Of a DNA stretch of 64,000 bases, positions 3,168 to 34,284 are shown piece by piece. The position numbers and the translations under genes are program-made. The notes beneath the pieces are model-generated. The model did not search any database. It worked only from the letters and a program-made list of their open reading frames with translations, and was not told the DNA's origin. The stretch is from an uncultured Candidatus Saccharibacteria bacterium (GTDB lineage: Bacteria; Patescibacteriota; Doudnabacteria; UBA920). The stretch spans positions 30,615 through 94,614 of the forward strand of contig CAZBAS010000004.1 of assembly GCA_964490395.1 (NCBI GenBank), given 5' to 3'. The stretch's first letter is position 1; each line of letters begins with the position of its first letter.

Positions 3168-3180
3168 CATAGCTAACTCA

Positions 3181-3450: not shown

Positions 3451-3458
3451 AAAACCTA

Positions 3459-3549
3459 AACGGGAAGTGGCTCAGCCTGCTTTCCAAACACCACTGACCG
3501 TAAGTGGAAACCCGCGTAGGCATTACACTGCGCACAACCAGGAGAATTC
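3459..3549 (+). promoter_or_regulatory. Conserved hairpin-rich leader element, copy 2
   Basis: Sequence aacgggaagtggctcagcctgctttccaaacaccactgaccgtaagtggaaacccgcgtaggcattacactgcgcacaaccaggag. About 85% identical to copy 3. Stem 1 keeps its pairing through a G-U wobble. Confidence 0.5.
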
Positions 3550-13034: not shown

Positions 13035-13040
13035 TCGTTA

Positions 13041-13078
13041 AAACTGCTTTTCCATGTGGAAGGCAGTTTTTTTTTATT
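13041..13078 (+). terminator. Intrinsic terminator after the 918-aa gene
   Basis: aaactgcttttcc-atgtg-gaaggcagttt followed by a T(9) run. Confidence 0.6.
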
Positions 13079-13286
13079 CTATCTATGTATGCAGTAGGGC
13101 ATCGGTGAAGTATGTGTGAAGCTCTGTGCGAAAGTAGACAAAAAGGTTTTACCTAAGCCTAAATGAATGGTTACGGATGTTATTGCGGTTTTTCTCCGAA
13201 AGTGGTATAGTAATATGTCTTATTGCTCAGCAATAAAACAGATATTTAGTTATTAACTGGCTTGGCCAACAAGTCATTATTACGCT

Positions 13287-15854: not shown

Positions 15855-15895
15855 AACGGTTGCCTCTATGGAGCATGTAACATGTAACAAAAGAT

Positions 15896-15928
15896 ACGGA
15901 AAGCTTTGCTTTCCGTATTTTATTTTCT
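15896..15928 (+). terminator. Intrinsic terminator after the LPXTG gene
   Basis: acggaaagc-tttg-ctttccgt followed by attttatttt. Confidence 0.6.
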
Positions 15929-15929
15929 T

Positions 15930-16010
15930 GTTACATGCTTTTTGCTACATGTTACATGTTACATGCTCTACGCTACATGCTCTATGTTACATAGTATGCT
16001 GCATTGCTGT
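15930..16010. repeat. Array of ttacatg/ctacatg heptamer direct repeats
   Basis: tgttacatgctttttgctacatgttacatgttacatgctctacgctacatgctctatgttacat. Inverted copies catgtaacatgtaac lie just upstream of the terminator. Confidence 0.55.
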
Positions 16011-16151
16011 TTAATGCTGAATTTGGTACTGTTAAGATATTACGCCAAACGTTACGAGGCCTTTATGTCGGCAATTAAAAGACCTCTGGCTCGATCACCC
16101 TACTGGCTTTCGACGTGATAGACGTGAAGACGTTCAACGCCACACCTTTCT

Positions 16152-16874
16152 ATGCCAAAAGTTACCGTTACTAATCTTTCAAGACGAACTCCAAGCGCTG
16201 CTGCGCCACGACGAAAAGTTGCGGCCGAGCCCACAATGCCCGCGCCAAAAGAAAAAATGACGCTAAAAGCAGCACTGAAGCTGCTTATCTGGGTATGCCT
16301 ATTAAGTGGTGTGTGTTTAAGTCTGATGAATTGGGGGTTTGTTTCTGCGCGCGTCTCCTTCTTCTTTCACAAGCCCAATGCTGCTACGGTTATTCAGCCT
16401 AAAACCGAGGCAACAGCACCTTCAGAAGGGGCGTGGCCTAAAGATACATTGGCCATTCCGAGCCTCGGCATTAGTGCTCCGGTTATATACGATGTAGCGC
16501 AAAATGAAGAAGCATTTCAAGTAGCATTACAGAGCGGCGTGGTACACTATCCAGGTAGTAGTTTGCCGGGCGAAGTTGGGAATGTCTACATATTTGGCCA
16601 CTCTTCGGACTATGCATGGAGCAAGGGGAGTTATAAATCTGTATTTGCGGTGTTGCCGAAAATAGAAAAAGGTGCGGAAATAAAGCTCACCGACAGCAAA
16701 GGTTTTATGTACACATATATAGTTACGAAGCAGTTCGTAGTGGGGCCAAAAGACGTAAGTGTGCTCAGCCAGGACACCAAAGGTAAGCGCATACTTACAG
16801 TACAAACCTCATACCCCATTGGCACTGCCTTAAAACGATACGTGGTACAGGCCGAACTAAGACAGTCAGACTGA
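16152..16874 (+). CDS. Sortase-family (class E-like) transpeptidase homologue with Ser at the canonical catalytic Cys position
   Basis: N-terminal TM. HYPGSSLPGEVGN and FGH motifs. ILTVQTSYP...KRYVVQAEL aligns to class-E LLTLTTC...R, with Ser codon TCA at about 16809..16811. Confidence 0.6.
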   Translation: MPKVTVTNLSRRTPSAAAPRRKVAAEPTMPAPKEKMTLKAALKLLIWVCLLSGVCLSLMNWGFVSARVSFFFHKPNAATVIQPKTEATAPSEGAWPKDTLAIPSLGISAPVIYDVAQNEEAFQVALQSGVVHYPGSSLPGEVGNVYIFGHSSDYAWSKGSYKSVFAVLPKIEKGAEIKLTDSKGFMYTYIVTKQFVVGPKDVSVLSQDTKGKRILTVQTSYPIGTALKRYVVQAELRQSD

Positions 16875-16876
16875 CG

Positions 16877-16977
16877 GTCCAAATTTACAAATGTGACAAA
16901 TCTACAAATACCTACTAATCCTGGTTACGTAATTTGTATTATTTGTAGCCATTTGTAGATTTGTCTTATTCGTAGAT
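16877..16977. repeat. Palindromic intergenic repeat, family C, copy 1
   Basis: gacaaatctacaaat and atttgtagatttgtc form a 15-bp perfect inverted repeat. Homologous to 61493..61597. Confidence 0.6.
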
Positions 16978-17700
16978 TTGAACAATATGTTAATAGAAAT
17001 TAAAGACTTAAAAAAAGACTACATAAACGACGAGGTCGTAACTCCGGTTCTCCACGGGGTAAGTTTTGATATAGAAGAAGGGGAGTTTGTGGCCATTATG
17101 GGCCCTTCAGGGAGTGGTAAGTCAACACTCATGCACATTCTTGGTTTTTTGGACCGGTCTACTGGCGGCACATACAAGTTTGAAGGCAAAAATACTACCA
17201 CCTTTACCGATGAAGAGCTGGCGCGCATTCGCAATGAACGTGTCGGGTTTGTGTTCCAGGCGTTTAACTTGCTTGCTAGAACTACGGTACTCGATAACGT
17301 AAAACTGCCACTTATTTATGGTACTAAAAAGAACCAAGATCAACTGGCTAAGAAGGCATTGGAATCTGTGGGCCTGGGTCACCGGTTAGACTTTTATACC
17401 AACCAAATTTCTGGTGGAGAAAAGCAGCGCGTGGCCATTGCTCGGGCCCTGGCTACTGACCCTGCTGTTATATTTGCGGATGAGCCAACGGGAAACCTGG
17501 ACTCAAAGAGCGGTAATACCGTGATGCATATTCTGCAACGTCTGAACGATGAAGGCAAAACCATCATCTTAGTTACTCATGAAATGGACACGGCAGAACA
17601 CGCCAAGCGCCTCATAAAAGTAAAGGACGGAAACATTGTTGCAGATGAAAAAATTAAACACCGAACTATCGCCAAAGCGGAAGGAGAATTAGTTAAGTAG
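16978..17700 (+). CDS. ABC transporter ATP-binding protein, MacB/LolD/FtsE-type
   Basis: Walker [10 protein letters not shown], signature [15 protein letters not shown], Walker [13 protein letters not shown]. Confidence 0.85.
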
Positions 17701-17732
17701 CTTGTAGGAGTTAGGGATTAGGTTGTAGAAGT

Positions 17733-18098
17733 ATGCCAGTAGAATCGTACAAAGATCTAATAGTGTGGCAAAAGTCGATACAACTGGTATTGCTCATTTA
17801 CGAACTGACGGAAAAATTCCCAAAGTCTGAAATATATGGACTTACTTCCCAAATGCGCCGGTGCGCCGTTTCCGTGCCACCGAACATTGCTGAAGGGAGA
17901 AGGCGTAGCACCCGAAAAGAGTTTGGACATTTTGTGAGCATCGCATTTGGCTCAGGCTCAGAATTGGAAACGCAGCTCATCATATGTAAACAATTACCCT
18001 TTGGTGCAAGCTTGGACTATGCACATATTGATTCAATCCTTAGCGAAATTATGAAAATGCTGAACACTCTCCTGGTTAAGCTACAAGCTAATTCATAA
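17733..18098 (+). CDS. Four-helix-bundle protein (23S rRNA intervening-sequence protein family)
   Basis: LIVWQKSIQLVLLIYELTEKFPKSEIYGLTSQMRRCAVSVPPNIAEG matches the family pattern. Inserted between the ABC ATPase and permease genes. Confidence 0.65.
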   Translation: MPVESYKDLIVWQKSIQLVLLIYELTEKFPKSEIYGLTSQMRRCAVSVPPNIAEGRRRSTRKEFGHFVSIAFGSGSELETQLIICKQLPFGASLDYAHIDSILSEIMKMLNTLLVKLQANS

Positions 18099-18115
18099 AT
18101 CCTAATTCCTTTTTT

Positions 18116-19357
18116 GTGAAATTCATCGGTGAAATAAAATTAGTTATCAAAGGTTTGCTGTCCCGCAAAGGACGGTCGTTTTTGACGATTCTGGGAATTG
18201 TGATAGGAGTGGCGGGTGTTATTACTATTATTTCTCTTGGTGCGGGCGCGCAGAGCTTGGTGTTGTCGCAATTAACGTCCCTCGGAAGTAATTTAGTTGG
18301 TATTTTACCGGGCAAATCAAACGAAACAGGGCCTCCAGCGGCTGTGTTTGGGGTGCAAATTACGACTTTAACACTGGACGATGCTCATGCGTTATTAAAT
18401 AACCCAAGACTGCCCCATGTAGCAGCAGTAGCTGCGTTTACAAGAGGTAGCGCTACAGTAGTATGGAGAAACAAAGATGTAGACACGAGCTTTACTGCAA
18501 CAGAAGGCAGCTTACCCGACGTGCAAAACACACCTATTGCAGTAGGGCGGTTTTTTGACGAACGCGAAGAAAGAAGCGGTGCAAATGTTATTGTACTGGG
18601 CTGGGACGTAAAGAATGAGCTTTTTGATACGCAAGACCCCATTGGCCAGGTGGTAAAAATAAAAAACATACCATTTGAAGTAATTGGTGTAACCAAAAAG
18701 CAGGGGACTGTGGCGTTTCAAAACCAGGACGACCAAGTATATATGCCCCTATCCATTGGGCAAAAACAAATTTTAGGAATAAATTACTTGCAGTTTATTC
18801 GCGCGCGCATAGACCAGACTGCGTTTGTAAAGTCCACCATTGCCGACATAGAACAGTTGTTAAAGGAGCGGCATCGTATTCGTACTGAGGCGGAGGTGGA
18901 TTACTCTGTGCGGGATTTAGCAGACGCCATAAAACTGATAGGAAGCATTACAGACGCGCTTAAATATTTTCTTGCGGCCATGGCAGCGCTTAGTCTTGTG
19001 GTAGGGGGCATAGGTATAATGAACATTATGTTGGTTACGGTTGCAGAGCGTACGCGCGAGATAGGCCTGCGTAAGGCCGTGGGCGCCACAAATAAAAATA
19101 TTCGTAATCAATTTTTGCTTGAGTCCAGCACCGTAACGCTGCTTGGCGGCATAGTTGGTATTATTATAGGCTCACTTCTTGCCTATGGTGCTGCGCTGGG
19201 TGCGCGCTACGCCGGCTATACCTGGGACTTTGTTATTTCCCCGGTGTCTATTTTGGTTGCGGTTGGGGTATCGGTTGGAGTAGGGGTCCTCTTTGGTTAC
19301 TACCCCGCCCGCAAGGCCGCAAAACTGAACCCGATTGAAGCGCTAAGGTACGAATAA
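18116..19357 (+). CDS. ABC transporter permease, FtsX/MacB-like
   Basis: N-terminal TM, large extracytoplasmic domain, then 3 C-terminal TM helices with FtsX-like features. Confidence 0.8.
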   Translation: MKFIGEIKLVIKGLLSRKGRSFLTILGIVIGVAGVITIISLGAGAQSLVLSQLTSLGSNLVGILPGKSNETGPPAAVFGVQITTLTLDDAHALLNNPRLPHVAAVAAFTRGSATVVWRNKDVDTSFTATEGSLPDVQNTPIAVGRFFDEREERSGANVIVLGWDVKNELFDTQDPIGQVVKIKNIPFEVIGVTKKQGTVAFQNQDDQVYMPLSIGQKQILGINYLQFIRARIDQTAFVKSTIADIEQLLKERHRIRTEAEVDYSVRDLADAIKLIGSITDALKYFLAAMAALSLVVGGIGIMNIMLVTVAERTREIGLRKAVGATNKNIRNQFLLESSTVTLLGGIVGIIIGSLLAYGAALGARYAGYTWDFVISPVSILVAVGVSVGVGVLFGYYPARKAAKLNPIEALRYE

Positions 19358-19828: not shown

Positions 19829-21079
19829 ATGCGAACAGCATTTAAACAAGCCTACCGAGGCCTCACCATTAACCCAGCACGCACAGCGCTAACCACGCTG
19901 GGTATTGTTATTGGCATTGCTACAGTTATAGTCGTACTGAGTGCGGGTGCAGGTTTTCGCAGCTTTATAAACTATCAAATAGACCAGTTCGGAAGCAATA
20001 CGGTATATATTCAAACGAAAGTACCGCCGAGCACAAAACAACGGGCACGTGGTGGAGGCGGGGCAGACCAGGCTAACCAGGCAGTACAAATTACGACCCT
20101 CAGAAATCGCGACGTAGAAGATGTGGCCCAGCTCAAAGGTGTGGTGGGGACGTATGGAGCGGTCATTGGCCAGAAAGTGGCGAGCTATAAACAAATTAGC
20201 AAGAATGCATTTATATTTGGCTCGAGCGCATCACGGTTCAAAATAGATAAAGGCGCACTCGCCGAGGGTCGCCCTTACTCCGAACAGGAAGATGCTGCTG
20301 CTGACCAGGTAGCCATCCTTGGGGCGGATATAGCAAAAGACTTGTTTGGTAGCGACACGGGTATAGGTAAAACCATTCGGGTAGGGAATCTGAATTTCAT
20401 TGTCATTGGAGTATACGAACGCCGGGGCAGCTTTGGGTTTAGTAACGACGACCAGCAAGTGTTTATCCCGCTGCAAACCGCTCAGAAAAAACTCCTCGGT
20501 ATAGACCACTTACTGTATATGGTTGCGCAGATTGATAGTTCAGATAATACAGCTCCTGTCGCAGAAGATATACGCATCGTACTTCGTCATAACCACGAAA
20601 TAAAAGACCCAGCCAAAGATGACTTTGACGTACAAAACCAAGCGCAGGCTTTGGAGACGTTTAACGTTATTCTCAAAGGTATAACGCTCTTACTTATTGC
20701 AGTGGCGGCCATAAGTTTGCTGGTTGGCGGTGTGGGCATTATGAACATTATGTACGTGGTCGTTACTGAACGCATTTCCGAGATTGGTCTTAAAAAGGCT
20801 CTTGGCGCAACCCCAAATAACATTCTCAGTGAGTTTTTAATAGAAGCAGTACTCCTTACGTTCCTGGGGGGCATTATTGGTATACTACTTGGCGCACTGG
20901 TGTCGTACGGCATTAGCCTTGCCGCAAACGCGTTTGGCTTTGCCTGGGCATTTAGCGTGCCGCTCAGCGGCATTGCCCTGGGTATGGGCGTTTCTGGCGG
21001 CATAGGACTACTCTTTGGCGTATTTCCCGCCCGCCGCGCCGCCAAGCTCGACCCGATGGAAGCCCTCCGCTACGAATAA
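19829..21079 (+). CDS. ABC transporter permease, FtsX/MacB-like (paralogue of 18116..19357)
   Basis: Same architecture as the upstream permease. C-terminal PARRAAKLDPMEALRYE matches the upstream PARKAAKLNPIEALRYE. Confidence 0.8.
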   Translation: MRTAFKQAYRGLTINPARTALTTLGIVIGIATVIVVLSAGAGFRSFINYQIDQFGSNTVYIQTKVPPSTKQRARGGGGADQANQAVQITTLRNRDVEDVAQLKGVVGTYGAVIGQKVASYKQISKNAFIFGSSASRFKIDKGALAEGRPYSEQEDAAADQVAILGADIAKDLFGSDTGIGKTIRVGNLNFIVIGVYERRGSFGFSNDDQQVFIPLQTAQKKLLGIDHLLYMVAQIDSSDNTAPVAEDIRIVLRHNHEIKDPAKDDFDVQNQAQALETFNVILKGITLLLIAVAAISLLVGGVGIMNIMYVVVTERISEIGLKKALGATPNNILSEFLIEAVLLTFLGGIIGILLGALVSYGISLAANAFGFAWAFSVPLSGIALGMGVSGGIGLLFGVFPARRAAKLDPMEALRYE

Positions 21080-21083
21080 CCTC

Positions 21084-21122
21084 CTTGAAAAATAATTTCA
21101 CAATTGTACAAATATTTTTCAA
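21084..21122. repeat. 39-bp inverted repeat, left copy, flanking the 21156..21851 gene
   Basis: cttgaaaaataatttcacaattgtacaaatatttttcaa. Its reverse complement matches 21852..21890 at 37 of 39 positions. Contains overlapping palindromes ttgtacaa and acaattgt. Confidence 0.7.
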
Positions 21123-21155
21123 TAGCGATTAGTACATAACAATAGTGTAAACCCT

Positions 21156-21851
21156 ATGGGTTATACGAAAGTAAATTCAGATGGTACGCAAGCACTCGCT
21201 ACTGTAGTACGTGCGAGTTTGGGGGTCACAGCGCCAGCAAAACCGTTACTATCACCTGAAAGCATTCATGACTTAAAGAGGGTAGGGGAAATTACACTGG
21301 CACTTGTGGCCATGGTCGGTGCAACAGCGCTAACCATTGTGGCGCCGTCAATATGGAGAGCCGTGAGTGTTGCCCAAAAGATATATAAAGCAACCAGGCG
21401 TGCTACGCCGCGACAAAGCCGCACGCTCGCGCAAGCCATCTACTATTTGAAGAAGCGTGGGTATGTGCGCATAGAACCAAATGGCTTGGGGGATTATATT
21501 ATCTCACTGACACATAAAGGCAAAAGTCGTGTAAGCGAGATAGAATTTAATGCCCTACACGTACCAAAACCTACAATATGGGACAAATCTTGGTGGTGCG
21601 TAGCAGGGGACATACCAACCAAAGAACATCGAGCAGGGGCTGACTTGCTTCGCCGCAAGTTAAAACATATGGGTTTTGCTTCGCTGCAACGTAGTATGTG
21701 GTTTTATCCATTTGACCCTCGCAAGGAAATAAATACAATTACTGAAACGTATCACATTGGTAAGTATGTTACCGTTATGCAGGTGGTAAAGATGGACAAG
21801 GACGACGAAGTAGTACTGAAGCGCCATTTTAAAAAACTCAGAATACTGTAG
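21156..21851 (+). CDS. Hypothetical protein, possibly a PaaX-like winged-helix regulator
   Basis: C-terminal WDKSWWCVAGDIPTKEHRAGADLLRRKLKHMGFASLQRSMWFYP resembles the PaaX C-terminal pattern W.G.W.LV...P...R..LR..L...GFG.L..G.W..P. Confidence 0.35.
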   Translation: MGYTKVNSDGTQALATVVRASLGVTAPAKPLLSPESIHDLKRVGEITLALVAMVGATALTIVAPSIWRAVSVAQKIYKATRRATPRQSRTLAQAIYYLKKRGYVRIEPNGLGDYIISLTHKGKSRVSEIEFNALHVPKPTIWDKSWWCVAGDIPTKEHRAGADLLRRKLKHMGFASLQRSMWFYPFDPRKEINTITETYHIGKYVTVMQVVKMDKDDEVVLKRHFKKLRIL

Positions 21852-23827: not shown

Positions 23828-23914
23828 AATGTCCAATTTCTAATATCTAATTCTTAATGAGTAGGGCAGTCTTTTGTCCTACTTTAGACATTAGAAATTA
23901 GGTATTAGATATTT
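23828..23914. repeat. AT-rich palindromic repeat, family A, copy 1
   Basis: aatgtccaatttctaatatctaattcttaatg ... gacattagaaattaggtattagatattt. Confidence 0.6.
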
Positions 23915-24302
23915 ACTCTAGATGAAGCACCTTATTCACTGTATTCAATATTTCTTCCGTCGTGAAATACGCCTTTATCATATAGTCGGAAACCTTGAGC
24001 TCTCGAACACGCAGAATATCCTGGTCGTTCCAAATATTTGATAGAATAATTACAGGGGTATTGGCTATGGCAGGGTCCGGGTTTTTGCGGATGGTTTCCA
24101 AAACTGTGAAGCCGTCCACCTCGGGGAGCATCAGGTCGAGTAAAACCAGGTCTGGGTGCTCACGATCGAACACGACTAAACCTTCTTTACCATCGGCTGC
24201 CTGGCTTACTAAAAAGCCATGAGATTGAAGTTTATGGGCCACTATGTCCCGCATAGCGCCTTCATCCTCCACCACCAATATTTTCTTAGGCTGTTCGTCC
24301 AT
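23913..24302 (-). CDS. Stand-alone response-regulator receiver-domain protein (CheY-like)
   Basis: KILVVEDEGAMRD...LVLLDLMLPEVDG...VIILS: conserved DD, D and K of a receiver domain. Confidence 0.8.
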   Translation of the reverse strand: MDEQPKKILVVEDEGAMRDIVAHKLQSHGFLVSQAADGKEGLVVFDREHPDLVLLDLMLPEVDGFTVLETIRKNPDPAIANTPVIILSNIWNDQDILRVRELKVSDYMIKAYFTTEEILNTVNKVLHLE

Positions 24303-24421
24303 ATTATAATAAGCTATATTGCTATAGTATCTGCTTTTACTAGCATATCATACTTAAAAATCTTTACAACTAATCCCTGAAGCCTTCCACCACATTACCA
24401 CTGTGCAAGAAGGTTACTAGC

Positions 24422-25471
24422 ATGACACATCATTTAGCAGCCCAGGATCTCCGCACAGTTTTCTCAGCGCTCCCTGAGCTTGCGCGTTACAAAACTTACG
24501 CTACAGAGCCCTTTGAATGCGATATTCGGGTTATACGGCCGTTGCTTGATACATCTCCTATATCTGACCAGCAAATTGCCCTTTTAAGCACCCTGAGAGG
24601 CTCCTATGCTCGGTACGGCTCAGTACCAGCCATAGATGAATACGATACCAAATCATGCACCTACATAGGCATGGTACATAGCCAGTGTCCATGCGGAAGG
24701 TCGGAAAAGCATAGAGCTGTAGAGTGGCATAGCATACGGTTTATACCAGCTGCGGGGAAGCCAGATGGGACTGACGATTTTGCGCTCTGCGTGGTCAAGA
24801 CAGGTACCCTTAATACGCTCTTGCAAAGTACGCTCTTTTCTAATAGGCCAGATTACGAAAAATACTTAGTAAGTATTACTCGTATATGCGCTACGCCGCG
24901 GTATTGCCTGCTAGACAATATGGAGCTTACTTACAGAGTGGGCACTGCAGCAAATTTCTGGCTCATGAATAAAACTTTTTATGGTGTATATGCAGAACAA
25001 GGGTTTACGCACATGACCGGACTGTTCCGAAATGATTTAACCTCGCGACTACTGGTAGACGCGAGTAAGCCGCCAGAGACCATATTCACTCCCGCCTATA
25101 CCGTCCTTGGACTTCCCCCAGATGCCATTACCATAAATCGGGGACTGGCTGGGTACCGATGGCCTGCGTATTTTCTGAATACGAACGACCTCGTGCAAAC
25201 ACTTACGCAGCTCGCTCAAACGGGGAAAGTGTCAAAAGCTTTTGTTGATACAGCCGTAGCAGATGGATTCCAAAACTTTGGTGGCATACTGCAAGCCATG
25301 GGTCCCATACCGCACACTTCAGTAACGGGCGAGGAGCTCCGAAGTATTGTAAACGCACAGGTGTCAGACGGCCCACTGCTCCGACTGTTCCCATTACCGA
25401 CCTGGCAAAAAACCATCGAACAGCAAGTAGCAGCCCTGCATGTACAAGCAGTAGCGCCAGTGAGTATATAA
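24422..25471 (+). CDS. Hypothetical protein (349 aa) with Cys cluster CTYIGMVHSQCPCG
   Basis: ORF only. Lies 18 bp upstream of the E1-like gene, probably co-transcribed. Confidence 0.45.
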   Translation: MTHHLAAQDLRTVFSALPELARYKTYATEPFECDIRVIRPLLDTSPISDQQIALLSTLRGSYARYGSVPAIDEYDTKSCTYIGMVHSQCPCGRSEKHRAVEWHSIRFIPAAGKPDGTDDFALCVVKTGTLNTLLQSTLFSNRPDYEKYLVSITRICATPRYCLLDNMELTYRVGTAANFWLMNKTFYGVYAEQGFTHMTGLFRNDLTSRLLVDASKPPETIFTPAYTVLGLPPDAITINRGLAGYRWPAYFLNTNDLVQTLTQLAQTGKVSKAFVDTAVADGFQNFGGILQAMGPIPHTSVTGEELRSIVNAQVSDGPLLRLFPLPTWQKTIEQQVAALHVQAVAPVSI

Positions 25472-25489
25472 ATAACCAACACATAATTT

Positions 25490-26758
25490 ATGCAACAATC
25501 TCATACGATTGGTAAGCCATTACTTATACCTGCTGCTGCCAGTCATAGAACAAAGCGGGTGCAATACAAAAAAGATGGCACTGTCATGCTCTCCCTTGGA
25601 AAGGGCCAAGTAGTGGCCATTCCAAAAAGCAAACAGTACGACCTAACCCAAGCAACCATATTTGGCTTGAATGAACGGTTGACCATGGCTGCCACCTCTC
25701 CAGTCGTAGACAAGCGCGGGAAAACATTGCGCGAGCTCTTTAATGCAGAGTGGCAAAAATACGCCCAGGCCTTGGAAAAAGCAAAAAAAGGGACCCTGGA
25801 TTACGGAGTCTATGCCTATTACGAACGGAGTGGTGACTTAGTCCGGTACGCCGACCCCTACTGGCACAAAGTAGTTAGCATGGCGAGCAATTCCATGCTT
25901 ATAGCTGATCAAAAGCAAAAACTCTCGTGGAAAGAAATTCGCGCAATATTCGATACAACTACAGTTGGAGTAGTAGGTGCCAGCGTTGGTGGGAGCATTA
26001 TGCACACCACAGTCATGGACCTGCGACCCAACCACATCAAAGTGGCGGATAAAAGTTTATATAAACTGGAGAATGTAAACCGAGTACGCCTTCGTTACTC
26101 AGAAGTGGTGGAGTCTAACGAAAAAAGAACAAGCGCTACAGATTCTTTGCTCAGAAACAAAGCCATCGTAACTGCTGAACAAATTTATGCAATAGACCCC
26201 TTTATTACCGTACATGCATACAGCGAAGGTATAAACCTTGGGAACATTGACCGGTTTTTTAAGGGTGGCGCAGGGGAGCCAAAAGTAGACATTTTAGTAG
26301 AAGAAGTAGACGATGCACAAATGAAAGTTACGCTCCGCGAGTACGCCCGAAAACACCGCATACCACTACTTATGGTGAGTGACTTTGGTTCGAACGTGCA
26401 ATTGGATATTTCACGGTTCGACCTTGACCCAAAACTTTCGCTCACTTACGGCACACCAGATAAAAAACTACACGAAGCTACTGCAGCTGTGTACGCACGA
26501 GGCGGCGAAGTCTCTGCATTTTTTGACTTTGTAGATGCGCTGGTGGGACGGGATTACAGAGCAGGGGAGTTGGATATGATCCTTAACCAAAAGTGTGAAA
26601 TACCTACTTCAACTATTATTCCGCAGCTCGGATCAACTATATCAACAGCAGCCGGTATAATGGCAGAAACCATTGCGCGCATCCGCCTTGGCTGGAAAAA
26701 CCACCCTCGCCGCATGGTGTTTAATAAACGAGATTTTACCATAAAACTGTATAGCTAG
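25490..26758 (+). CDS. E1-like (ThiF/MoeB/HesA-fold) adenylyltransferase-superfamily protein with a ~130-aa N-terminal extension
   Basis: Gly-rich Rossmann loop VGVVGASVGGS, then VADKSLYKLENVNRV (compare ThiF D..V..SNLNRQ), and later LLMVSDFGSNVQLD. Confidence 0.55.
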   Translation: MQQSHTIGKPLLIPAAASHRTKRVQYKKDGTVMLSLGKGQVVAIPKSKQYDLTQATIFGLNERLTMAATSPVVDKRGKTLRELFNAEWQKYAQALEKAKKGTLDYGVYAYYERSGDLVRYADPYWHKVVSMASNSMLIADQKQKLSWKEIRAIFDTTTVGVVGASVGGSIMHTTVMDLRPNHIKVADKSLYKLENVNRVRLRYSEVVESNEKRTSATDSLLRNKAIVTAEQIYAIDPFITVHAYSEGINLGNIDRFFKGGAGEPKVDILVEEVDDAQMKVTLREYARKHRIPLLMVSDFGSNVQLDISRFDLDPKLSLTYGTPDKKLHEATAAVYARGGEVSAFFDFVDALVGRDYRAGELDMILNQKCEIPTSTIIPQLGSTISTAAGIMAETIARIRLGWKNHPRRMVFNKRDFTIKLYS

Positions 26759-26921
26759 CGTTATATTACCCCCTGTAATAACGAAGGCGAAAAACTTCCT
26801 ACATAGTTGCACTATTTACTGGGTCGCTGCATAATACACTCTCATATTCAACAGGAGGGTATGATGTATTAGCGGTTAATATCCTGGATTACTCCCACCC
26901 ACTAAATAAGGAGACTGATTT

Positions 26922-27569
26922 ATGGAAGCCTTTACAACGGCGTTTGCCATTATTACAAGGCTGTTTGAGATTATGGGATCGAAGGGTGCTTTGGCGATTT
27001 GCAATAACGCCAGTCATACGAGTGATGATAAAACTATTCACATAGTACATACTCCGAATACTAATGATTACGGAGTAGACATCTCAGCAGTATCAAATTT
27101 GCTAGACGCACTCCACGGTCACAAGCATTCTCCACAACTGTCTGTGACACAAAATAGAAAAGGCGGCGCATGCGCTGGCGACAATTATTTTTTACTGGCA
27201 GTAGGTGCGGCAGGAATTGGATTGCCTGAACATGTGCTCATGTTTCTTGCCGGAATTGCTATAGTACCACACTACTTCCCGATTGAATTGCAGAGGGTCA
27301 TTGGATACAGCACTTCACCGGCCCTGGACGATCTTCTCCGTCGCGCGAAGGCATGCGCAGTACCTGTCAGCACAGGGGCACATACAAGTGTAGGAAAACC
27401 TACGTTGATATTCGTGTTCCGGTCAATAAACAGGCAATGCGAGGAGGCCTGCCGCCTCTTAAGCTCATTATGCGGCGGCTCGAACAATCTGCAAGTAAAT
27501 TCGGATGCGATCATTATTCCAGCTACGACCTACGCAGTAGATTTGGGCTTTGCATTTATCTCAACATAG
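26922..27569 (+). CDS. Hypothetical protein (215 aa)
   Basis: Good SD (aaataaggagactgattt ATG). Convergent with the nitroreductase-like gene. Confidence 0.35.
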   Translation: MEAFTTAFAIITRLFEIMGSKGALAICNNASHTSDDKTIHIVHTPNTNDYGVDISAVSNLLDALHGHKHSPQLSVTQNRKGGACAGDNYFLLAVGAAGIGLPEHVLMFLAGIAIVPHYFPIELQRVIGYSTSPALDDLLRRAKACAVPVSTGAHTSVGKPTLIFVFRSINRQCEEACRLLSSLCGGSNNLQVNSDAIIIPATTYAVDLGFAFIST

Positions 27570-27647
27570 GACGGCAGGTCTCTCATTTAACCAAAACAAA
27601 AGCGGCTAGAGCCCTCAGAACTTTAGCTGCTTTTTTATTTTTATCGT

Positions 27648-28769
27648 TTAGAGGAGTACCGATGATAACGGCAACCTTGGTGAGTGGGGGCGTAGCAAAT
27701 CTTCTTTTCGTTTTATGTACCCAATCCTGTACACCGTAAGCAGCTTACCGGTCTGCCCAAAGGTATTGGTAAATATATCGTGCACAAGACCTACTTCAGT
27801 TAATCCCGCGTGGATAGATACGCGTATGCCGTGCATCTCAAACAGCAAAAACTGTTTTGTAGCCAATACTCCGGTTTTGAGCCAATCAACAGGAGTATCT
27901 GTATTACCAAATAAAAAGCCGAGTACTGCAGATCGTTCAATTAGAAACTTGGTGCCAAGGCTAAACTTGAGCATGTCTTCCGGCTTCAGTTTTATTTTTC
28001 CGAGCAGTCCTAAGTGAAGCCGAGTACTGCCTTCCTGCGTCAGGCCCATATTGCTGCCCGGCATGCCTACAAATGAAGTTGTATCGTTCGGGAGTATCCA
28101 CGCACCCAGTTCTTTAGCAAATTTAGGGGAGTTCGCTACAAACCCGTCTGCTTGCTGCTGCAGCTCCGATACCTTGAGCCGGTCTGGGGCTTTATCCAAA
28201 AACAGCGTACGAATGTCTCCGCCAGCTTCTGCGCGGATGGCCTGTTTCAAAACAGTTGGCGAGACTTTTTTTACTGTATCGAATTCAGCCCGAACTACTT
28301 TGCGGGTAAAAATAGCCTTCAGAAGTGCACGAGGTGCAGCAGTACGCGCGGGCGCAAACGAAATAGTGGCGAGTCGGGTGTATCTGTTTTTAGCTTTTGG
28401 ATTCGAAAGGGGAGTAACGTCGCGTGGCTGTATGGAGGCATACGCCACCCGCGCGGTAAGAGCATAGCAGCGTGCTCCTTCTAGTATGTTACCAACAGAG
28501 CACCCCATGCTAACGAGTGCTTGCCGGCCAGTTGGGTCGGATTCAGGTAAGATTGCGGTTCGGTCCACGAGCACCTCTATGGTGTATTTTTTTGCGTCAA
28601 TTTTGTATCGCCAAGGCTGCGTATTGTGTGAGCTCGCAGCTAAGTGGCCGAGCAGACAGAGATATTCAAGCTGCTGCTGCTTGGACAAACTACGAAACTC
28701 CGGGCGAGTATGCTGCGGCGTAGTCCACACAGCATAGTTAGAGTCCACGGTCTCTTTTTTGCTTGTCAT
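27648..28769 (-). CDS. Two-domain nitroreductase-superfamily protein (SagB/ThcOx-like architecture)
   Basis: NTQPWRYKI nitroreductase signature in the N-terminal half, plus a second nitroreductase-like half. Confidence 0.55.
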   Translation of the reverse strand: MTSKKETVDSNYAVWTTPQHTRPEFRSLSKQQQLEYLCLLGHLAASSHNTQPWRYKIDAKKYTIEVLVDRTAILPESDPTGRQALVSMGCSVGNILEGARCYALTARVAYASIQPRDVTPLSNPKAKNRYTRLATISFAPARTAAPRALLKAIFTRKVVRAEFDTVKKVSPTVLKQAIRAEAGGDIRTLFLDKAPDRLKVSELQQQADGFVANSPKFAKELGAWILPNDTTSFVGMPGSNMGLTQEGSTRLHLGLLGKIKLKPEDMLKFSLGTKFLIERSAVLGFLFGNTDTPVDWLKTGVLATKQFLLFEMHGIRVSIHAGLTEVGLVHDIFTNTFGQTGKLLTVYRIGYIKRKEDLLRPHSPRLPLSSVLL

Positions 28770-28819
28770 ATGGGTATAACGTGTTATGCTTAAAGAGGTA
28801 TTTCCCTCATAATATCATG

Positions 28820-30490
28820 GAAACTCTACAGCTCGAAATTTTACTCGATACCATTGCATTTATTAGCAGTATTATTCTTGGCGCGCTTATTTTCTTTAAA
28901 GATCCGAAAAGCTGGACCAACCGATTGTTCTTCGTGCTTTCCGCGCTCATTGACACCTACATAGTTGTAAATTATATTTCGCTGCACCCGCCAACTCCCA
29001 CACCAGAGAGTCAGTTGTTTTGGATACGCATAGTCATGTTCGTGACTTCGTTTATTGGCCCCGCGCTGGTGGTGTTCATCCATACTTTTCCCGGGACAAG
29101 GGTAACCCTTCGCAAAAAATACTTATTGCCGCTACTCAGCCTTATGGTGCTTTCTGCATCATTCTCCCTTGGCACGTTAGTATTCAAATCCATTGAGTAC
29201 CCGAACGGAAGCCCCGTACCCCAGCCTGGCGCGGGCATTCCGGTTTTTCTGCTGGATTTTGTAGGGATGTTCATTTTAAGCTTTGTCATACTTATATATA
29301 AGTATCGTCACGCAAGTGGTGTAGACAAAAACAGGCTTCTCTACATGCTCGTTGGAGTATTCGCCTCGTTTTCATTGATGGGTGTGACCACGGTTATATT
29401 TGTTGCATTTCTTAAAACATCGAGCTTCGTGTTTTTGGGTCCGGTATTCACCGTGATACTCATGGCCTGCATTGCCTATGCAACCGTGAAGTACCAGCTG
29501 TTTAATCTCAAGGTGTTTGCTACCGAGATGCTCGTAGGTGGGCTTTGGATTTTACTTTTTGGCAAAGTGTTTACCTCCCGCTCTGTATCGGAACGAATTG
29601 TGGATGTATCCATTTTCCTGGTGACCATGGTGGTGGGGAGTTTTCTAGTGCGGAGCGTAGCGCGCGAAGTGAGGCAGCGCGAGCAATTGGAAACCCTTAC
29701 AAAAGAGCTGAGCGAGGCCAATGTACAGCTAAAACAGCTCGACCAAGCCCGGGCCGACTTCCTTACTCTCACCTCGCACCAACTTAGAACTCCTCCCGCA
29801 ACTATCAAATGGTACCTCGCAGCTATTCAAAGCGGTGATTTTGGCGCATTGCCGAAAGATGTGGCAGAGGCCATTGCCAAGACTGAGGTAACGAACAATG
29901 CACTTATATCGCTCATTGACGATTTACTCAATGCATCACGCATAGAAAGGGGTAAGCTTGAGTTTTTATTTGAGCCGGTTAAACTTGATGAGCTGACCAA
30001 ATTTACGGTTGAGCAGCTACAGCCACAAGCGCACTTAAAAGGGCTTGAGCTCCTGTACGAAGCTTCGCCCATACCAGTACCCGAAGTAGTGGCGGATAAA
30101 GAAAAAATTCGTCAGGTGGTAAATAATTTCATAGACAATGCTATAAAATATAGCCCCAAGGGCAATATTGTGGCTCGAGTTACCGTGGATGAAAAATTTG
30201 TAACGGTTGAAGTGCAAGACACCGGTAAAGGGATAGAGGCGGGGATTATCAACTCTTTGTTCCACAAATACAGTCGGGGCAAAGACTCGGTTACGCATGC
30301 AACAGGTATTGGCATTGGGCTGTACGTGGCAAAAATTGTTGTAGAGAATCACAAGGGTGAAATTGGCGCAAAGAGTGATGGCGTGGGTAAGGGTTCTACA
30401 TTCTATTTCCGCATACCCATTAAGAATGACTTACCGCATATTAAGATGATGGATCTTGTCGAAGAACAAAGTGGAAATGACAAAAGTTAA
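28820..30490 (+). CDS. Membrane sensor histidine kinase (multi-TM sensor + HisKA + HATPase_c)
   Basis: LTSHQLRTPP (H-box), NFIDNAIKYSP (N-box), DTGKGIEAG (G1), GIGIGLYVAK (G2). The start is moved from the track's 28763 to avoid overlapping the divergent gene's start. Confidence 0.8.
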   Translation, partial: ETLQLEILLDTIAFISSIILGALIFFKDPKSWTNRLFFVLSALIDTYIVVNYISLHPPTPTPESQLFWIRIVMFVTSFIGPALVVFIHTFPGTRVTLRKKYLLPLLSLMVLSASFSLGTLVFKSIEYPNGSPVPQPGAGIPVFLLDFVGMFILSFVILIYKYRHASGVDKNRLLYMLVGVFASFSLMGVTTVIFVAFLKTSSFVFLGPVFTVILMACIAYATVKYQLFNLKVFATEMLVGGLWILLFGKVFTSRSVSERIVDVSIFLVTMVVGSFLVRSVAREVRQREQLETLTKELSEANVQLKQLDQARADFLTLTSHQLRTPPATIKWYLAAIQSGDFGALPKDVAEAIAKTEVTNNALISLIDDLLNASRIERGKLEFLFEPVKLDELTKFTVEQLQPQAHLKGLELLYEASPIPVPEVVADKEKIRQVVNNFIDNAIKYSPKGNIVARVTVDEKFVTVEVQDTGKGIEAGIINSLFHKYSRGKDSVTHATGIGIGLYVAKIVVENHKGEIGAKSDGVGKGSTFYFRIPIKNDLPHIKMMDLVEEQSGNDKS

Positions 30491-30499
30491 AAAACAGTT

Positions 30500-30970
30500 A
30501 TGACTATAATTTGTGAAGTTTCGGCCAGGCACTATCACCCTGTAAAAGATACTGGTTATACTAAGAAAAAAGATATTTCCCAAACCGGCCAGTGGGCAGC
30601 AAACGAACGAGTGGAGTACAACGGCCTTACATTCGGTGTAATAATGCCAGAACGACCCTATGAAAAATACGAGCTCAGCATTACTGACTGGTGGAAAGCG
30701 TGCGGGGGAGAACCCGTGTTTGAAGATGGAAAGTCTACTGTTGTTGTCCAACTCAGACACTTTCATTGCTCTACAGCAACAGCAGAGCAGCTCAAGCTGA
30801 AAACAGGGGACAAAGTATCCATTTACAAAAGTGGCATACGTGCGGGCCGGCTCGACGAAGTATATGTAAAAGTAGACCCCAGCTTCCAAGACCGCATACA
30901 TTTGGATACTGATGAAGCCAATGCACTATACATAAAAAATGGCGACGAAGTAGAACTTATTATTGAGTAA
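30500..30970 (+). CDS. Hypothetical protein (possible beta-barrel MOSC/PK-barrel-like C-terminus)
   Basis: ORF with SD. GDKVSIY...NGDEVELI pattern. No firm assignment. Confidence 0.35.
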   Translation: MTIICEVSARHYHPVKDTGYTKKKDISQTGQWAANERVEYNGLTFGVIMPERPYEKYELSITDWWKACGGEPVFEDGKSTVVVQLRHFHCSTATAEQLKLKTGDKVSIYKSGIRAGRLDEVYVKVDPSFQDRIHLDTDEANALYIKNGDEVELIIE

Positions 30971-31604: not shown

Positions 31605-32504
31605 ATGAGAAAATTTGTTGCACTTGTATTTTTAATTATCATCGCGGGTCTTGCTTGGCTCGGGGTTTCTGTTCGTCATAGAATCGCGGAAAAAGAAGCA
31701 CGCCAGAAAGCTGCTGCGGAAAAGAAGTTTGAAGAAGTCAAAGTTACCCTTATAGAGGGGTGGGGGAATGCAGAAATTTTCGCAGCGTTGGAAAAAGCCG
31801 GGTTTGGTAGTGTGGCAGATTTTGAAAAAGCGGAGAAAGAGCTAGATAGATCAAAATACGGCTTTCTTGATACCATACCGCCCAAAGTAGACTTAGAAGG
31901 GTATTTTTTTCCCGATACCTATCGCATAGCAAAAAACGCCACACCCAGTGACGTTCTCGATATGTTGTTAGAAAATTTTAAAACCCGATTCGCAAAAGTG
32001 CAAGCAGGGGCGAACTATACGGATGGGTACTATATTATTCCTGAATTTGAAACGTTACACCTTAAAAATAGAGTTGCTCCTGGCCTCACGCTGCATGAGG
32101 TCGTCACCCTTGCCGCCATTGTAGAAAAAGAAACGGGCAAGAGGGGGGAGGCGGCAACTTCGGATCGCTTGCTAGAAGAACGTAAAACCGTAGCGGGGAT
32201 ATTCTTGAATAGATTAACCATAGGGCAGGCCCTGCAAAGCGATGCAACTATAAACTACATAACTAAATCCGGCCGCAGCAGCTCCACGTTAGCTGATACA
32301 GAAATTGACTCTCCGTATAACACCTATAAATACGCTGGACTTCCTCCAGGGCCTATAGGTAGTCCCTCCTCGGCAAGCTTGAGCGCGGTACTTTCTCCAA
32401 TTAAAACAGATTATTTTTATTTTCTTCACAGCGCCACAGGCGAGATTTACTACGCTAAAACTTTCGAGCAGCATGTAAACAATAGGAATAAGTATTTGAA
32501 ATAA
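31605..32504 (+). CDS. mltG: Endolytic murein transglycosylase MltG/YceG
   Basis: N-terminal TM. YFFPDTYRI and NTYKYAGLPPGPIGSPS motifs typical of YceG. Confidence 0.8.
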   Translation: MRKFVALVFLIIIAGLAWLGVSVRHRIAEKEARQKAAAEKKFEEVKVTLIEGWGNAEIFAALEKAGFGSVADFEKAEKELDRSKYGFLDTIPPKVDLEGYFFPDTYRIAKNATPSDVLDMLLENFKTRFAKVQAGANYTDGYYIIPEFETLHLKNRVAPGLTLHEVVTLAAIVEKETGKRGEAATSDRLLEERKTVAGIFLNRLTIGQALQSDATINYITKSGRSSSTLADTEIDSPYNTYKYAGLPPGPIGSPSSASLSAVLSPIKTDYFYFLHSATGEIYYAKTFEQHVNNRNKYLK

Positions 32505-32514
32505 TTGTCCAGAA

Positions 32515-34284
32515 TTGCGCAAAATTGTCCAAAAATTTATGAAAGTACACATACTAAACAAAATTACGCGCAACGTGCTTATATACACTATAGTTCTTTG
32601 TAGCTTACTAGGAGTGTTTGGAGAGGTGGCGTATGCACAACAAGGAGTTGGTGAATATGAACGTATAGAGCATTTTCATAGCAAAATTATAGTAAATGCC
32701 GACGCGTCGCTTAAGGTAACAGAAGATATACAAGTATATGCCACAGGTGACCAAATTCGCCATGGCATATACCGCGATTTTCCTACAAGCTATAAAGATC
32801 GGTTCGGCAATAAGATCCGAGTGGGGTTTACTATTGTAAGTGTAGAGCGGGACAACGCCTCCGAGCCGTATCATACAGAGCGTAAAGTGAATGGTACGCG
32901 TATATATTTTGGAGATGCGAATACAATCATACCCACGGGCCTACACACGTATACATTCACATACACGGTAACGCGTGAGTTAGGTTTTTTTGTAGACCAT
33001 GATGAACTCTACTGGAACGTAACTGGAAATGGCTGGATATTTCCCATACTGAATGCGAGTGCGCAGGTAATACTTCCTTCGGGCATACTTTCTAACAAAA
33101 TTAGCACGGCGGCATATACCGGGGCCGCGGGTTCAAAGGCTCAAGATTTTACGGTGAGCACGAGTGAAGCAGGGGCCACTTTTAAGACAACGAAACCATT
33201 GAGCGCCGAGGAAGGCTTAACCATAGTGGTAGGCTTTCCCAAAGGTTTCGTGCAAGAGCCTACTACCAAACAGAAGATAGAGTGGTTTTTAAACGACAAT
33301 AAGGGCATTTTAGTTTCGGGCATTTTACTTTTGCTGCTTATAGCATATTACATTCGTACCTGGGGAAAGTACGGAGTTGACCCAGCCAAGGGTACTATAG
33401 TTGCACAATACGAAGCCCCACGAAAGCTTTCACCAGCTGGAGTATTTTACATTCACAAAATGGGCTACCGCATGAATGCTTTTACGGCAGGCGTGCTATC
33501 GCTCGCGGTAAAGGGGTATATACACATAACCAATGACGACAAACGATACGTAATAAGCAAGGCGTCTACTGCCGGCAAAGGCGCAAGCACGGACGAACAA
33601 GCGCTCTATGACGAACTGTTTACAGAGAGCGAAAACATTACCCTCAGTAATGCTGAGTATAAAAGATTGCAAAAAGCCCAGGCAAAACAGCGAGCCGTAT
33701 TAGTGGGAGAACTGGGAAACAATACGTACTTCATCAACAACACAAAATACTTTGTGGGTGGGTTTTTACTCTCTGTAGTTGTCATAATAACCGCAATTGC
33801 CTTGCAAACGCCGCCATATGCAATTGCATTAGTGATTGTTATAAGTGTGGTCATGGATGTCCTTTTTTATAACCTGCTTCGAAAGCGTACCCTAGAAGGA
33901 CAACAACTCTACGAAGAGATTGAAGGATTCAAACTCTACATGTCTGTTGCGGAAAAGGATAGGTTAAATTTTCACAACCCACCCGAACAAACACCGCAGC
34001 TATTTGAAAAACTGTTACCCTATGCGCTCGCTCTTGGCGTAGAGCAAAAATGGGCTGAACAGTTCGCCAGCGTATTTGCCAAACTCGGACCCGAAGGCCA
34101 AGGCGGTTACATGCCGCTGTGGTATACTGGCGCTTACTTTAACGCGCATTCAGTCGGCGACTTTAGTAGTTCATTCTCCAGCGCCATATCCTCATCCTCC
34201 ACACCACCTGGATCCAGTTCAGGAGGGGGCGGAGGAGGCTCCTCAGGCGGAGGAGGCGGCGGCGGAGGTGGGGGAGGATGGTAG
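32515..34284 (+). CDS. DUF2207-family membrane protein with Gly-rich C-terminus
   Basis: Signal/TM. HGIYRDFPTSYKD...LYWNVTGNGW block typical of DUF2207. Internal TM helices. Ends in a poly-Gly tail. Confidence 0.6.
   Translation: MRKIVQKFMKVHILNKITRNVLIYTIVLCSLLGVFGEVAYAQQGVGEYERIEHFHSKIIVNADASLKVTEDIQVYATGDQIRHGIYRDFPTSYKDRFGNKIRVGFTIVSVERDNASEPYHTERKVNGTRIYFGDANTIIPTGLHTYTFTYTVTRELGFFVDHDELYWNVTGNGWIFPILNASAQVILPSGILSNKISTAAYTGAAGSKAQDFTVSTSEAGATFKTTKPLSAEEGLTIVVGFPKGFVQEPTTKQKIEWFLNDNKGILVSGILLLLLIAYYIRTWGKYGVDPAKGTIVAQYEAPRKLSPAGVFYIHKMGYRMNAFTAGVLSLAVKGYIHITNDDKRYVISKASTAGKGASTDEQALYDELFTESENITLSNAEYKRLQKAQAKQRAVLVGELGNNTYFINNTKYFVGGFLLSVVVIITAIALQTPPYAIALVIVISVVMDVLFYNLLRKRTLEGQQLYEEIEGFKLYMSVAEKDRLNFHNPPEQTPQLFEKLLPYALALGVEQKWAEQFASVFAKLGPEGQGGYMPLWYTGAYFNAHSVGDFSSSFSSAISSSSTPPGSSSGGGGGGSSGGGGGGGGGGGW

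Follow-up and report, generated by a model that had tools for sequence, protein, structure and literature searches.

N-acyl oxazolones came to light only between 2020 and 2025, with the OxzAB, TyzACB and TrzAS pathways, a pathway type described mainly in Actinomycetota and Proteobacteria (PMC10404671, PMC12856293). In the TrzAS pathway, TrzA, encoded next to TrzS, is reported to supply an N-acyl amino acid; TrzS (Rv1355c) cyclises N-acyl-tryptophan with ATP through its ThiF domain, then desaturates the ring product with O2 through a flavin-dependent oxidase (FDO) domain, yielding N-acyl tryptazolones (PMC12856293). The same three activities are reported for TyzA, TyzB and TyzC of Mycobacterium tuberculosis (PMC10404671) and for OxzA and OxzB of Pseudoalteromonas (bioRxiv 10.1101/2020.06.11.147165). 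A signalling role has been proposed for these compounds, they are not known to have a receptor, and their physiological role is called "a major unresolved question" (PMC12856293). Here we describe a locus that probably encodes a divergent pathway of this type, invariably accompanied by a seven-transmembrane (7TM) histidine kinase. It lies in a 64,000-nucleotide stretch of DNA, hereafter the window (assembly GCA_964490395.1, contig CAZBAS010000004.1, positions 30,615 to 94,614), from an uncultured bacterium of the Patescibacteria (GTDB Doudnabacteria, UBA920). Positions are those of the window.

Patescibacteria, or candidate phyla radiation (CPR) bacteria, have reduced genomes, are largely episymbiotic and carry few biosynthetic clusters. 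The locus had been annotated initially, from its letters alone, as an E1-like enzyme cassette, possibly a system not previously characterised. This novelty no longer holds, as the trio formed by the acyltransferase, the ThiF-fold enzyme and the oxidase matches the OxzAB, TyzACB and TrzAS pathways, and is likely to be their split, divergent homologue, judging from family scores, conserved residues and predicted fold. The pathway type would thereby extend to Patescibacteria, where the module is kept across many lineages. All six open reading frames (ORFs) initially listed are present, at the positions given for them. The ThiF-fold protein has 141 full-length homologues (48-99% identity), all in Patescibacteria-type metagenome-assembled genomes or metagenomes, and the ratios of non-synonymous to synonymous substitution rates (dN/dS) relative to a sister strain (locus L033) are low: 0.03 (ThiF), 0.11 (FDO), 0.15 (349-aa gene) and 0.28 (a 215-aa gene). 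For these two reasons, the ORFs are real coding genes rather than chance ones.

The three enzymes and their closest relatives

The candidate ATP-dependent cyclase, equivalent of TyzB or of the N-terminal domain of TrzS, is a 422-aa protein encoded at 25490..26758 (+ strand), 18 bp after the acyltransferase gene. Its place in the E1/ThiF superfamily, proposed initially, stands: it scores 44.2 bits with the Pfam ThiF model PF00899 (cut-off 28.1), and the E1 fold was confirmed. Among NCBIfam models, Rv1355c/TrzS lies far closer to it than any other family. Model NF005901 (Rv1355c family) gave 127.7 bits (E 4.5e-37), query residues 67-408 aligning on model positions 25-330 of 722, and the other ThiF-type models (ThiF, MoeB, TcdA) at most 33 bits, with E values of 2.9e-08 or weaker. 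A BLASTP alignment of the adenylation core with an Rv1355c family protein encoded on a Rhodococcus plasmid (PGAP annotation) shows 30% identity (E 4e-23); both proteins have an unusual GxSVG nucleotide loop, a D-x-x-x-x-x-x-x-N-x-N-R block and an EExD adenylation motif. Residues D187, N197, R198, K224 and D274 are invariant across the aligned orthologues. The last of them, being in the EExD motif, corresponds to the TrzS aspartate whose D217A exchange is reported to abolish cyclisation (PMC12856293). Family score and invariant residues together point to a ThiF-like cyclase that belongs in one clade with TrzS, TyzB and OxzB and whose ATP site is apparently intact. The protein stands apart from the Rv1355c equivalog proper, a fusion of ~720 aa scoring at least 476 bits, as here two genes share the match (127.7 bits for the ThiF half and 28.2 bits for the FDO half).

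The first ~150 aa form a conserved N-terminal extension, after which comes the adenylation core (approximately residues 150-410). The initial annotation had noticed this extension and likened it to the peptide clamp of MccB and to the recognition elements of ribosomally synthesised and post-translationally modified peptides (RiPPs). Its existence and conservation are borne out, but no evidence was found for a clamp or a recognition element, and from residue 67 on the extension is common to the small-molecule enzyme family Rv1355c. The wider proposal attached to it, starting from the E1-like fold, was that the enzyme activates the C terminus of a peptide or protein, in RiPP maturation or ubiquitin-like (Ubl) conjugation, or a sulfur-carrier protein. 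We consider this extremely unlikely. There is no invariant Cys or CxxC motif in the 27 aligned ThiF orthologues (the single Cys369 of the window protein is not conserved), which argues against E1-type thioester or Zn-site chemistry; moreover, the best family is that of the small-molecule enzyme TrzS, and the partner protein has an acyltransferase fold. No match was found at E≤1 between the four proteins and the TIGR03605/SagB or YcaO models, in agreement with the initial remark that the logic of thiazole/oxazole-modified microcins is lacking. Similarly, a PADLOC scan of the four proteins gave no hits, Bil- and CBASS-type systems included, and the locus is not a known defence E1 system. Finally, among the neighbours in the 28 loci compared below, no further gene family of at least 90 aa is conserved, be it Ubl/ThiS/MoaD, E2, JAB, rhodanese or YcaO, in a survey that left aside ORFs below 90 aa, the size range of precursor peptides.

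Side by side with the Patescibacteria proteins, the next-closest annotated ThiF relatives were found at 28-29% identity, with the N-terminal extension covered, on two actinomycete plasmids. In Kitasatospora (L036, NZ_CP108248.1), a 616-aa ThiF protein is followed by a ketoacyl-ACP (acyl carrier protein) synthase III, near a LuxR-type regulator, and in Streptomyces (L070, NZ_CP109501.1), the ThiF gene is followed by a GNAT gene. These loci may be further, uncharacterised acyl-small-molecule pathways. On Rhodococcus plasmids (L037, L069), an Rv1355c-family, TrzS-like gene lies beside a divergent ~255-aa hypothetical and a GGDEF-domain gene, the latter recalling the cyclic di-GMP genes next to trzAS in M. 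tuberculosis.

The FDO, a 373-aa protein of the nitroreductase superfamily encoded at 27648..28769 (- strand), would be the equivalent of TyzC or of the C-terminal domain of TrzS. Its best match is the NCBIfam model NF047509 for Acg family FMN oxidoreductases (150.4 bits, E 7.7e-44), residues 41-372 aligning on model positions 6-319 of 319; the score remains below the family cut-off of 199 bits, and the protein is nonetheless a clear homologue. The FDO family profile also aligns with MsAcg (2YMV) at E 5.4e-16, in two segments covering both halves. A weaker match (28.2 bits, E 5.3e-07) was obtained with positions 359-509 of the Rv1355c model, in its C-terminal half. The NTQPW nitroreductase motif is present, and the Pfam Nitroreductase match is only faint. 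The initial description of a two-domain nitroreductase-superfamily protein was therefore accurate, but not its SagB-like label, since TIGR03605 and SagB-type models gave no match at E≤1 and the protein is of the Acg type. All 25 FDO orthologues examined match both the Acg model and NF005901, and 24 of the 25 match NF011424, these last two being models of ThiF-FDO fusions. The two convergent genes, ThiF and FDO, look like a split version of the ThiF-nitroreductase fusion. Acg proteins (Acg/Rv3131 family) have no assigned substrate, and we know of no description of them next to ThiF or acyltransferase genes.

The first gene of the trio (24422..25471, + strand) encodes a 349-aa protein, called A below, which would perform the step of TyzA, TrzA and OxzA. 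It has no sequence-family match in Pfam or NCBIfam, none of the 26 members of the A family matched any Pfam model, with GNAT, Autoind_synth (PF00765) and FeeM giving nothing at E≤1, and a PDB profile search with the family came back empty. A word-indexed protein search yielded 2, then 8 relatives; orthologues were collected through synteny, as the genes that precede ThiF elsewhere, and are 19-31% identical to the 349-aa protein. Residues R59, Y65, G66, D75, R106, P248 and Y250 are invariant in the family. The structure prediction suggested initially proved informative: a confident AlphaFold model with a LuxI/FeeM-type fold was obtained, whose best structural matches are LasI, TofI and FeeM, the list of nearest solved folds continuing with RpaI, MesI and EsaI. 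In the model, a GNAT-like core (residues ~1-245) is followed by a conserved C-terminal helical domain of ~100 aa. The reported structural neighbours of TyzA are FeeM and the N-acyl-homoserine lactone (AHL) synthase BjaI (PMC10404671), which places the 349-aa protein in the structural class of TyzA. The A family resembles LuxI and FeeM in structure only, and not by sequence profile. When its profile was compared by hhalign with the hypothetical beside the Rhodococcus Rv1355c gene, a putative TrzA, the probability was 2.9%, which is not significant, and the sole coincidence was a local 'YERYG ... VEW..R' motif; as the hypotheticals beside other Rv1355c genes are unrelated, the comparison rests on one putative TrzA sequence. 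By its predicted fold and its context, rather than by sequence family, A is a good candidate for the enzyme that makes N-acyl amino acids in the pathway, adjacent to the cyclase as expected, and would define a LuxI/FeeM-fold acyltransferase family so far unrecognised, as Pfam and NCBIfam do not detect it.

Compared with each described pathway in turn, the locus shows a mixture of shared and distinct features. The window ThiF protein shares its GxSVG loop and its adenylation Asp with TrzAS (Rv1356c-Rv1355c; M. tuberculosis, M. smegmatis and Rhodococcus jostii), whose Rv1355c is also matched, in its C-terminal half, by the FDO. The trz genes also lie beside signalling genes, for cyclic di-GMP in M. 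tuberculosis and with GGDEF domains on the Rhodococcus plasmids. In contrast, ThiF and FDO are separate convergent genes in the window, and one 720-aa fusion in TrzS; identity is ~30% for ThiF and the FDO match is weak; A, with its 349 aa and extra C-terminal domain, has no detectable similarity to the putative TrzA; and the host belongs to Patescibacteria instead of Actinomycetota, with a 7TM kinase obligatorily linked. TyzACB (Rv2336-Rv2338c, M. tuberculosis), which makes an N-acyl tyrazolone, is closer in layout. It is reported to consist of three separate proteins, namely a LuxI/FeeM-fold acyltransferase of ~320-350 aa devoid of family annotation, a stand-alone ThiF protein, and an FDO of ~370 aa, likewise stand-alone, which is monomeric and has an Acg-like lid, and the acyltransferase lies on the opposite strand to one partner (PMC10404671). 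The arrangement differs, as A and ThiF are co-directional and FDO convergent in the window, whereas the tyzBC operon of M. tuberculosis is opposite tyzA; the window ThiF protein, with its 150-aa extension, is 422 aa long and TyzB 318 aa; and tyz is not known to be linked to a kinase. OxzAB, from Pseudoalteromonas rubra and other proteobacteria, is likewise an N-acyltransferase paired with ThiF and nitroreductase activities, which are fused in OxzB. A signalling role was suggested by de Rond, Asay and Moore for its products, labile like many signals, and no receptor or two-component linkage was described; the preprint mentions neither Patescibacteria, Parcubacteria nor histidine kinases (bioRxiv 10.1101/2020.06.11.147165). 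As for LuxI-type AHL synthases and FeeM, they differ by the two extra tailoring enzymes, ThiF and FDO, which are obligatory in the module described here.

It may also be that the three enzymes act on an acylated small molecule whose final form is not an oxazolone, if ThiF adenylates a carboxylate for amide or ester ligation or for another ring closure, and the Acg-type flavoprotein performs another redox step. The better fit of the FDO to the uncharacterised Acg model (150 bits) than to the FDO half of Rv1355c (28 bits) goes in this direction, as do the other partners of the related ThiF genes on actinomycete plasmids (ketoacyl-ACP synthase III with LuxR, or GNAT), the varied chemistry of ThiF folds (TcdA, PaaA, MccB), and the presence of two conserved domains with no assigned role, the N-terminal extension of ThiF and the C-terminal domain of the acyltransferase. 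Nevertheless, the association of a LuxI/FeeM-fold acyltransferase, an Rv1355c-type ThiF and an Acg-like FDO is the very signature reported to predict oxazolone clusters, and the FDO orthologues also match the fusion models NF005901 (25/25) and NF011424 (24/25). We consider a product other than an oxazolone quite improbable.

A four-gene unit including a 7TM histidine kinase

Gene neighbourhoods were taken from contigs of ThiF homologues and from one genome per GTDB species (25 loci), and analysed by profile searches and clustering; a locus was counted as informative when its contig extended far enough to show the neighbour. The acyltransferase, ThiF and FDO genes were present in 28 of the 28 non-redundant loci, an Acg-like FDO adjoining ThiF in each of them. 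In the 26 informative genome loci, the order was always acyltransferase, ThiF, FDO (convergent) and 7TM kinase, the latter adjoining FDO. Co-occurrence of the four cassette genes, anticipated in the initial annotation, is thereby verified for these three enzymes, but not for the 215-aa gene (see last section). A reverse metagenome scan was made from the sensor domain of the kinase alone. Among the 29 loci that it returned, FDO was adjacent in all 27 having upstream sequence, and ThiF and the acyltransferase were also present wherever the contig reached far enough upstream. Across these 27 informative loci of the metagenome scan, the sensor-domain family was never seen apart from the enzymes.

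The flanks of this block are variable, with at least five contexts. In ~14 loci, arginyl- or tyrosyl-tRNA synthetase genes lie upstream, and bactofilin and diacylglycerol kinase (DAGK)-type genes downstream; in the window, L001 and L015, HU and receiver genes lie upstream; and there are at least three further contexts. Chance synteny was considered and rejected, as the four genes stay together across at least five different surroundings, and because the orientation of FDO or of the kinase flips in L013, L031 and L059 with adjacency unbroken. The kinase gene of L013 and L031 has the reverse orientation, and is thereby co-directional with FDO. In L059 (10-5940), everything is co-directional: acyltransferase (250 aa), ThiF, FDO (401 aa), kinase (731 aa) and a receiver-only regulator, the kinase carrying an extra GAF domain and a glutamine synthetase gene following the module. 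Moreover, at least two lineages encode the acyltransferase and ThiF together in one fused ORF of ~780-815 aa (L013:2798-5200, L031:5795-8239, L047/L055:2407-4743), which gives substance to the coupling of ThiF with the upstream 349-aa gene predicted at the outset. We conclude that the conserved unit is made of four genes (acyltransferase, ThiF, Acg-type oxidase and 7TM kinase), to which a stand-alone receiver is added in some lineages; in the window, the functional unit is 24422-30490, with the receiver at 23913-24302. The new element is the genetic linkage of oxazolone-type enzymes to one family of 7TM kinases. Because this linkage is strict, holds in both directions and tolerates changes of orientation, the kinase most probably works with the pathway.

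Beyond the four-gene core, a bactofilin gene followed by a DAGK_cat lipid-kinase gene was observed downstream of the kinase in 13-14 loci of the Magasanikbacteria type (L003, L005, L011, L014, L017, L020-L023, L025, L026, L028, L030, L032), which suggests a recurrent envelope or lipid context.

The kinase gene (28820..30490, + strand) encodes 556 aa from its ATG, with an alternative TTG start at 28763. It is head-to-head with the FDO gene, which is itself convergent with ThiF, and the start codons of FDO and kinase are ~50 bp apart. The protein matches HisKA_7TM (6.5e-11), HisKA (7.3e-08) and HATPase_c (6.5e-23) in Pfam, and its residues 1-281 contain seven to eight hydrophobic segments; orthologues are 32-57% identical, the sensor half being strongly conserved. 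On the other side of the cassette, a 129-aa receiver-only response regulator is encoded at 23913..24302 (- strand), divergent from the acyltransferase gene. It matches Response_reg (E 1.6e-21) and has no output domain, and wherever such a gene is adjacent, it is a stand-alone receiver domain. The flanking receiver and membrane kinase of the initial annotation are thus both recovered in Pfam. An orthologous receiver is found upstream and divergent in L001, L015 and L033-L035, and after the kinase gene in L012, L038 and L059. Two kinases follow FDO in L012 (9448-13809), in the order 728-aa paralogue, receiver and 546-aa orthologue, which suggests a local duplication of the sensing arm.

Receiver and acyltransferase genes are separated by a divergent intergenic region of 119 bp (24303..24421), presumed from its geometry only to be a shared promoter region. 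A scan for promoters and terminators over 23.3-31.1 kb gave counts not above those of shuffled sequence, and Rfam, tRNA and tmRNA scans of the whole window yielded nothing at threshold.

Possible roles of the product and of the kinase

From the homology and fold of the enzymes, the conservation of the ATP site and the two-way linkage, we infer the following substrates, product and sensing step. The 349-aa acyltransferase would N-acylate an amino acid, using acyl-coenzyme A (CoA) or acyl-ACP as donor. With ATP, the ThiF-like enzyme would activate the carboxylate of this N-acyl amino acid as its adenylate, and attack by the amide oxygen would close a 5(4H)-oxazolone ring. The flavin-dependent oxidase would then desaturate the C-alpha/C-beta bond, giving a conjugated N-acyl oxazolone. 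This product, or its N-acyl amino acid precursor, could act as a small, lipophilic signal; the co-inherited 7TM kinase would perceive it within the membrane and phosphorylate the single-domain receiver. An acyl-oxazolone pathway with a cognate kinase is, taken as a whole, the best explanation we can offer, with chances that we place slightly above even.

Three features favour the kinase as perceiver of the product or precursor: the synthase has the fold of autoinducer synthases, the sensor is a polytopic membrane domain devoid of any extracellular ligand-binding module, and the sensor family is never seen without the enzymes. In several quorum-sensing circuits, such as LuxM/LuxN and CqsA/CqsS, a synthase gene is tied to the gene of a polytopic membrane histidine kinase. 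The acyltransferase of the window is in the same way genetically tied to a 7TM kinase, with which it would form a putative signal/receptor pair. LuxI-like genes next to kinases, detectable by sequence, are reported in other CPR phyla, and in the material available from that study the Magasanikbacteria entries are not LuxI homologues, the LuxI matches being in other CPR phyla (PMC7567580). The receptor link is an inference that we propose tentatively, as a reading with somewhat less than even chances.

Adjacency cannot tell a kinase that senses the product from one that regulates its production, and the second possibility is a serious rival to the receptor link. In that case, the chemistry would be the same, the kinase would be an environmental or membrane-stress sensor switching the pathway, and the product would be a membrane lipid, an antimicrobial or a stress protectant. 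The head-to-head disposition of FDO and kinase, with ~50 bp between starts, is a typical regulator/target geometry, and a highly conserved sensor domain next to a variable acyltransferase would be in keeping with such a role, as would the envelope or lipid context hinted at by the bactofilin and DAGK-type lipid kinase genes after the kinase in 13-14 loci. By analogy, the Acg-family FDOs of M. tuberculosis belong to the DosS/DosT-DosR regulon, and antibiotic-induced production of oxazolones is reported in proteobacteria. More generally, the literature ties oxazolones to stress and antibiotic induction, and exposure to the compounds is reported to have given no phenotype. Still, the receiver has no DNA-binding output, so that it offers no evident direct route to controlling transcription of the cassette, and a sensor-domain family that never occurs away from the enzymes would be unusual for a general stress sensor. 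We consider this regulatory role somewhat unlikely.

Several other observations weigh against an acyl-oxazolone signal perceived by the kinase. O2 is used by the FDOs known so far, and anaerobes are numerous among Patescibacteria; fatty-acid synthesis is also absent from most of the group, which leaves the acyl donor in question. The sensor of the kinase is well conserved (~55% identity) and the acyltransferase very divergent (19-31%), a mismatch unlike what would be expected of a strictly co-diversifying signal/receptor pair. The receiver lacks an output domain, and is adjacent in only a minority of loci. On the enzyme side, the window ThiF is only ~30% identical to members of the characterised family, and the FDO scores much higher with the Acg (FDO-B-type) model, whose function is unknown, than with the FDO half of Rv1355c, remaining below both curated cut-offs, while the oxazolone type calls for an FDO of subgroup A. 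It may not be a TyzC-type desaturase.

The strongest form of the acyl-oxazolone proposal would see in the four genes a complete circuit of chemical communication in Patescibacteria, conserved by vertical descent, with the acyl-oxazolone or N-acyl amino acid as an autoinducer-like signal and the kinase as its receptor. We regard this as unlikely. If it were true, no oxazolone natural product would have had an identified receptor before this kinase, a physiological role would be at hand for the OxzAB/Tyz/Trz class and possibly for Acg-type flavoproteins, and the strain-level replacement of 24048-30564 described below would resemble a pherotype-like allelic exchange. In any event, the invariant two-way link designates the 7TM kinases as concrete, testable candidates for a receptor or a regulator. 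If they sense the product, a new signal/receptor class would be gained, with insight into the sensing of neighbours or hosts by CPR bacteria; otherwise, the locus still stands re-annotated as a secondary-metabolite cluster, and not as a new E1 system.

Strain variation and surroundings of the module

Comparison of the window with its sister strain, L033 (Logan SRR24788853), revealed a diverged block at 24048-30564, with 349 mismatches (5.4%), covering almost exactly the receiver-to-kinase interval. The flanks are 100% identical over 2,028 bp on the left and 1,479 bp on the right. Divergence is highest in the acyltransferase gene (dS 0.32). Two other diverged blocks, 19882-21565 and 32044-33915, occur in the 14.8-kb overlap, which points to a recombination mosaic. 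The coincidence of block and module suggests that the module was exchanged as a unit by recombination.

The 215-aa gene, located at 26922..27569 (+ strand) between ThiF and FDO, had been counted initially as a partner of the E1-like enzyme. It turned out to be a lineage-specific ORFan: an exhaustive HMMER search of 1.84 billion representative proteins returned one homologue, 91-92% identical and from the sister strain, and the gene is absent from all other loci, in which ThiF and FDO abut or overlap. Its product has six Cys and one hydrophobic stretch at residues 90-123, and no match in Pfam. An AAGGAG sequence lies 7 nt upstream of its ATG; with this good ribosome-binding site and its dN/dS of 0.28, the gene is probably expressed. 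We conclude that it is an accessory, strain-level insertion, outside the conserved module.

The slot between ThiF and FDO is occupied in L034 by a gene for a 139-aa EamA half-transporter (3063-3482, + strand), and is empty in L035. Other junctions within the module are also insertion slots. In L008, a gene of the AstE/AspA family (aspartoacylase or N-acyl-amino-acid amidohydrolase type; 6132-6920, - strand) is found between acyltransferase and ThiF, and in L042 (1317-2375, - strand), NUDIX and nucleoside-deoxyribosyltransferase-like genes are inserted. The amidohydrolase of L008 and the EamA fragment of L034 bring side support, of a suggestive kind, for N-acyl-amino-acid chemistry or export.

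Directly downstream of the kinase, at 30500-30970 (+ strand), the window contains a 156-aa fragment of a PduL-type phosphate acyltransferase (PF06130, model positions 109-175 of 176), adjacent only in the window strain and L033. It could bear on the supply of short-chain acyl-CoA or acyl-phosphate. Further upstream, positions 10278-19357 encode large Big_7/DUF11 surface proteins, a sortase and a MacB-type ABC transporter, a set typical of CPR cell-surface islands.

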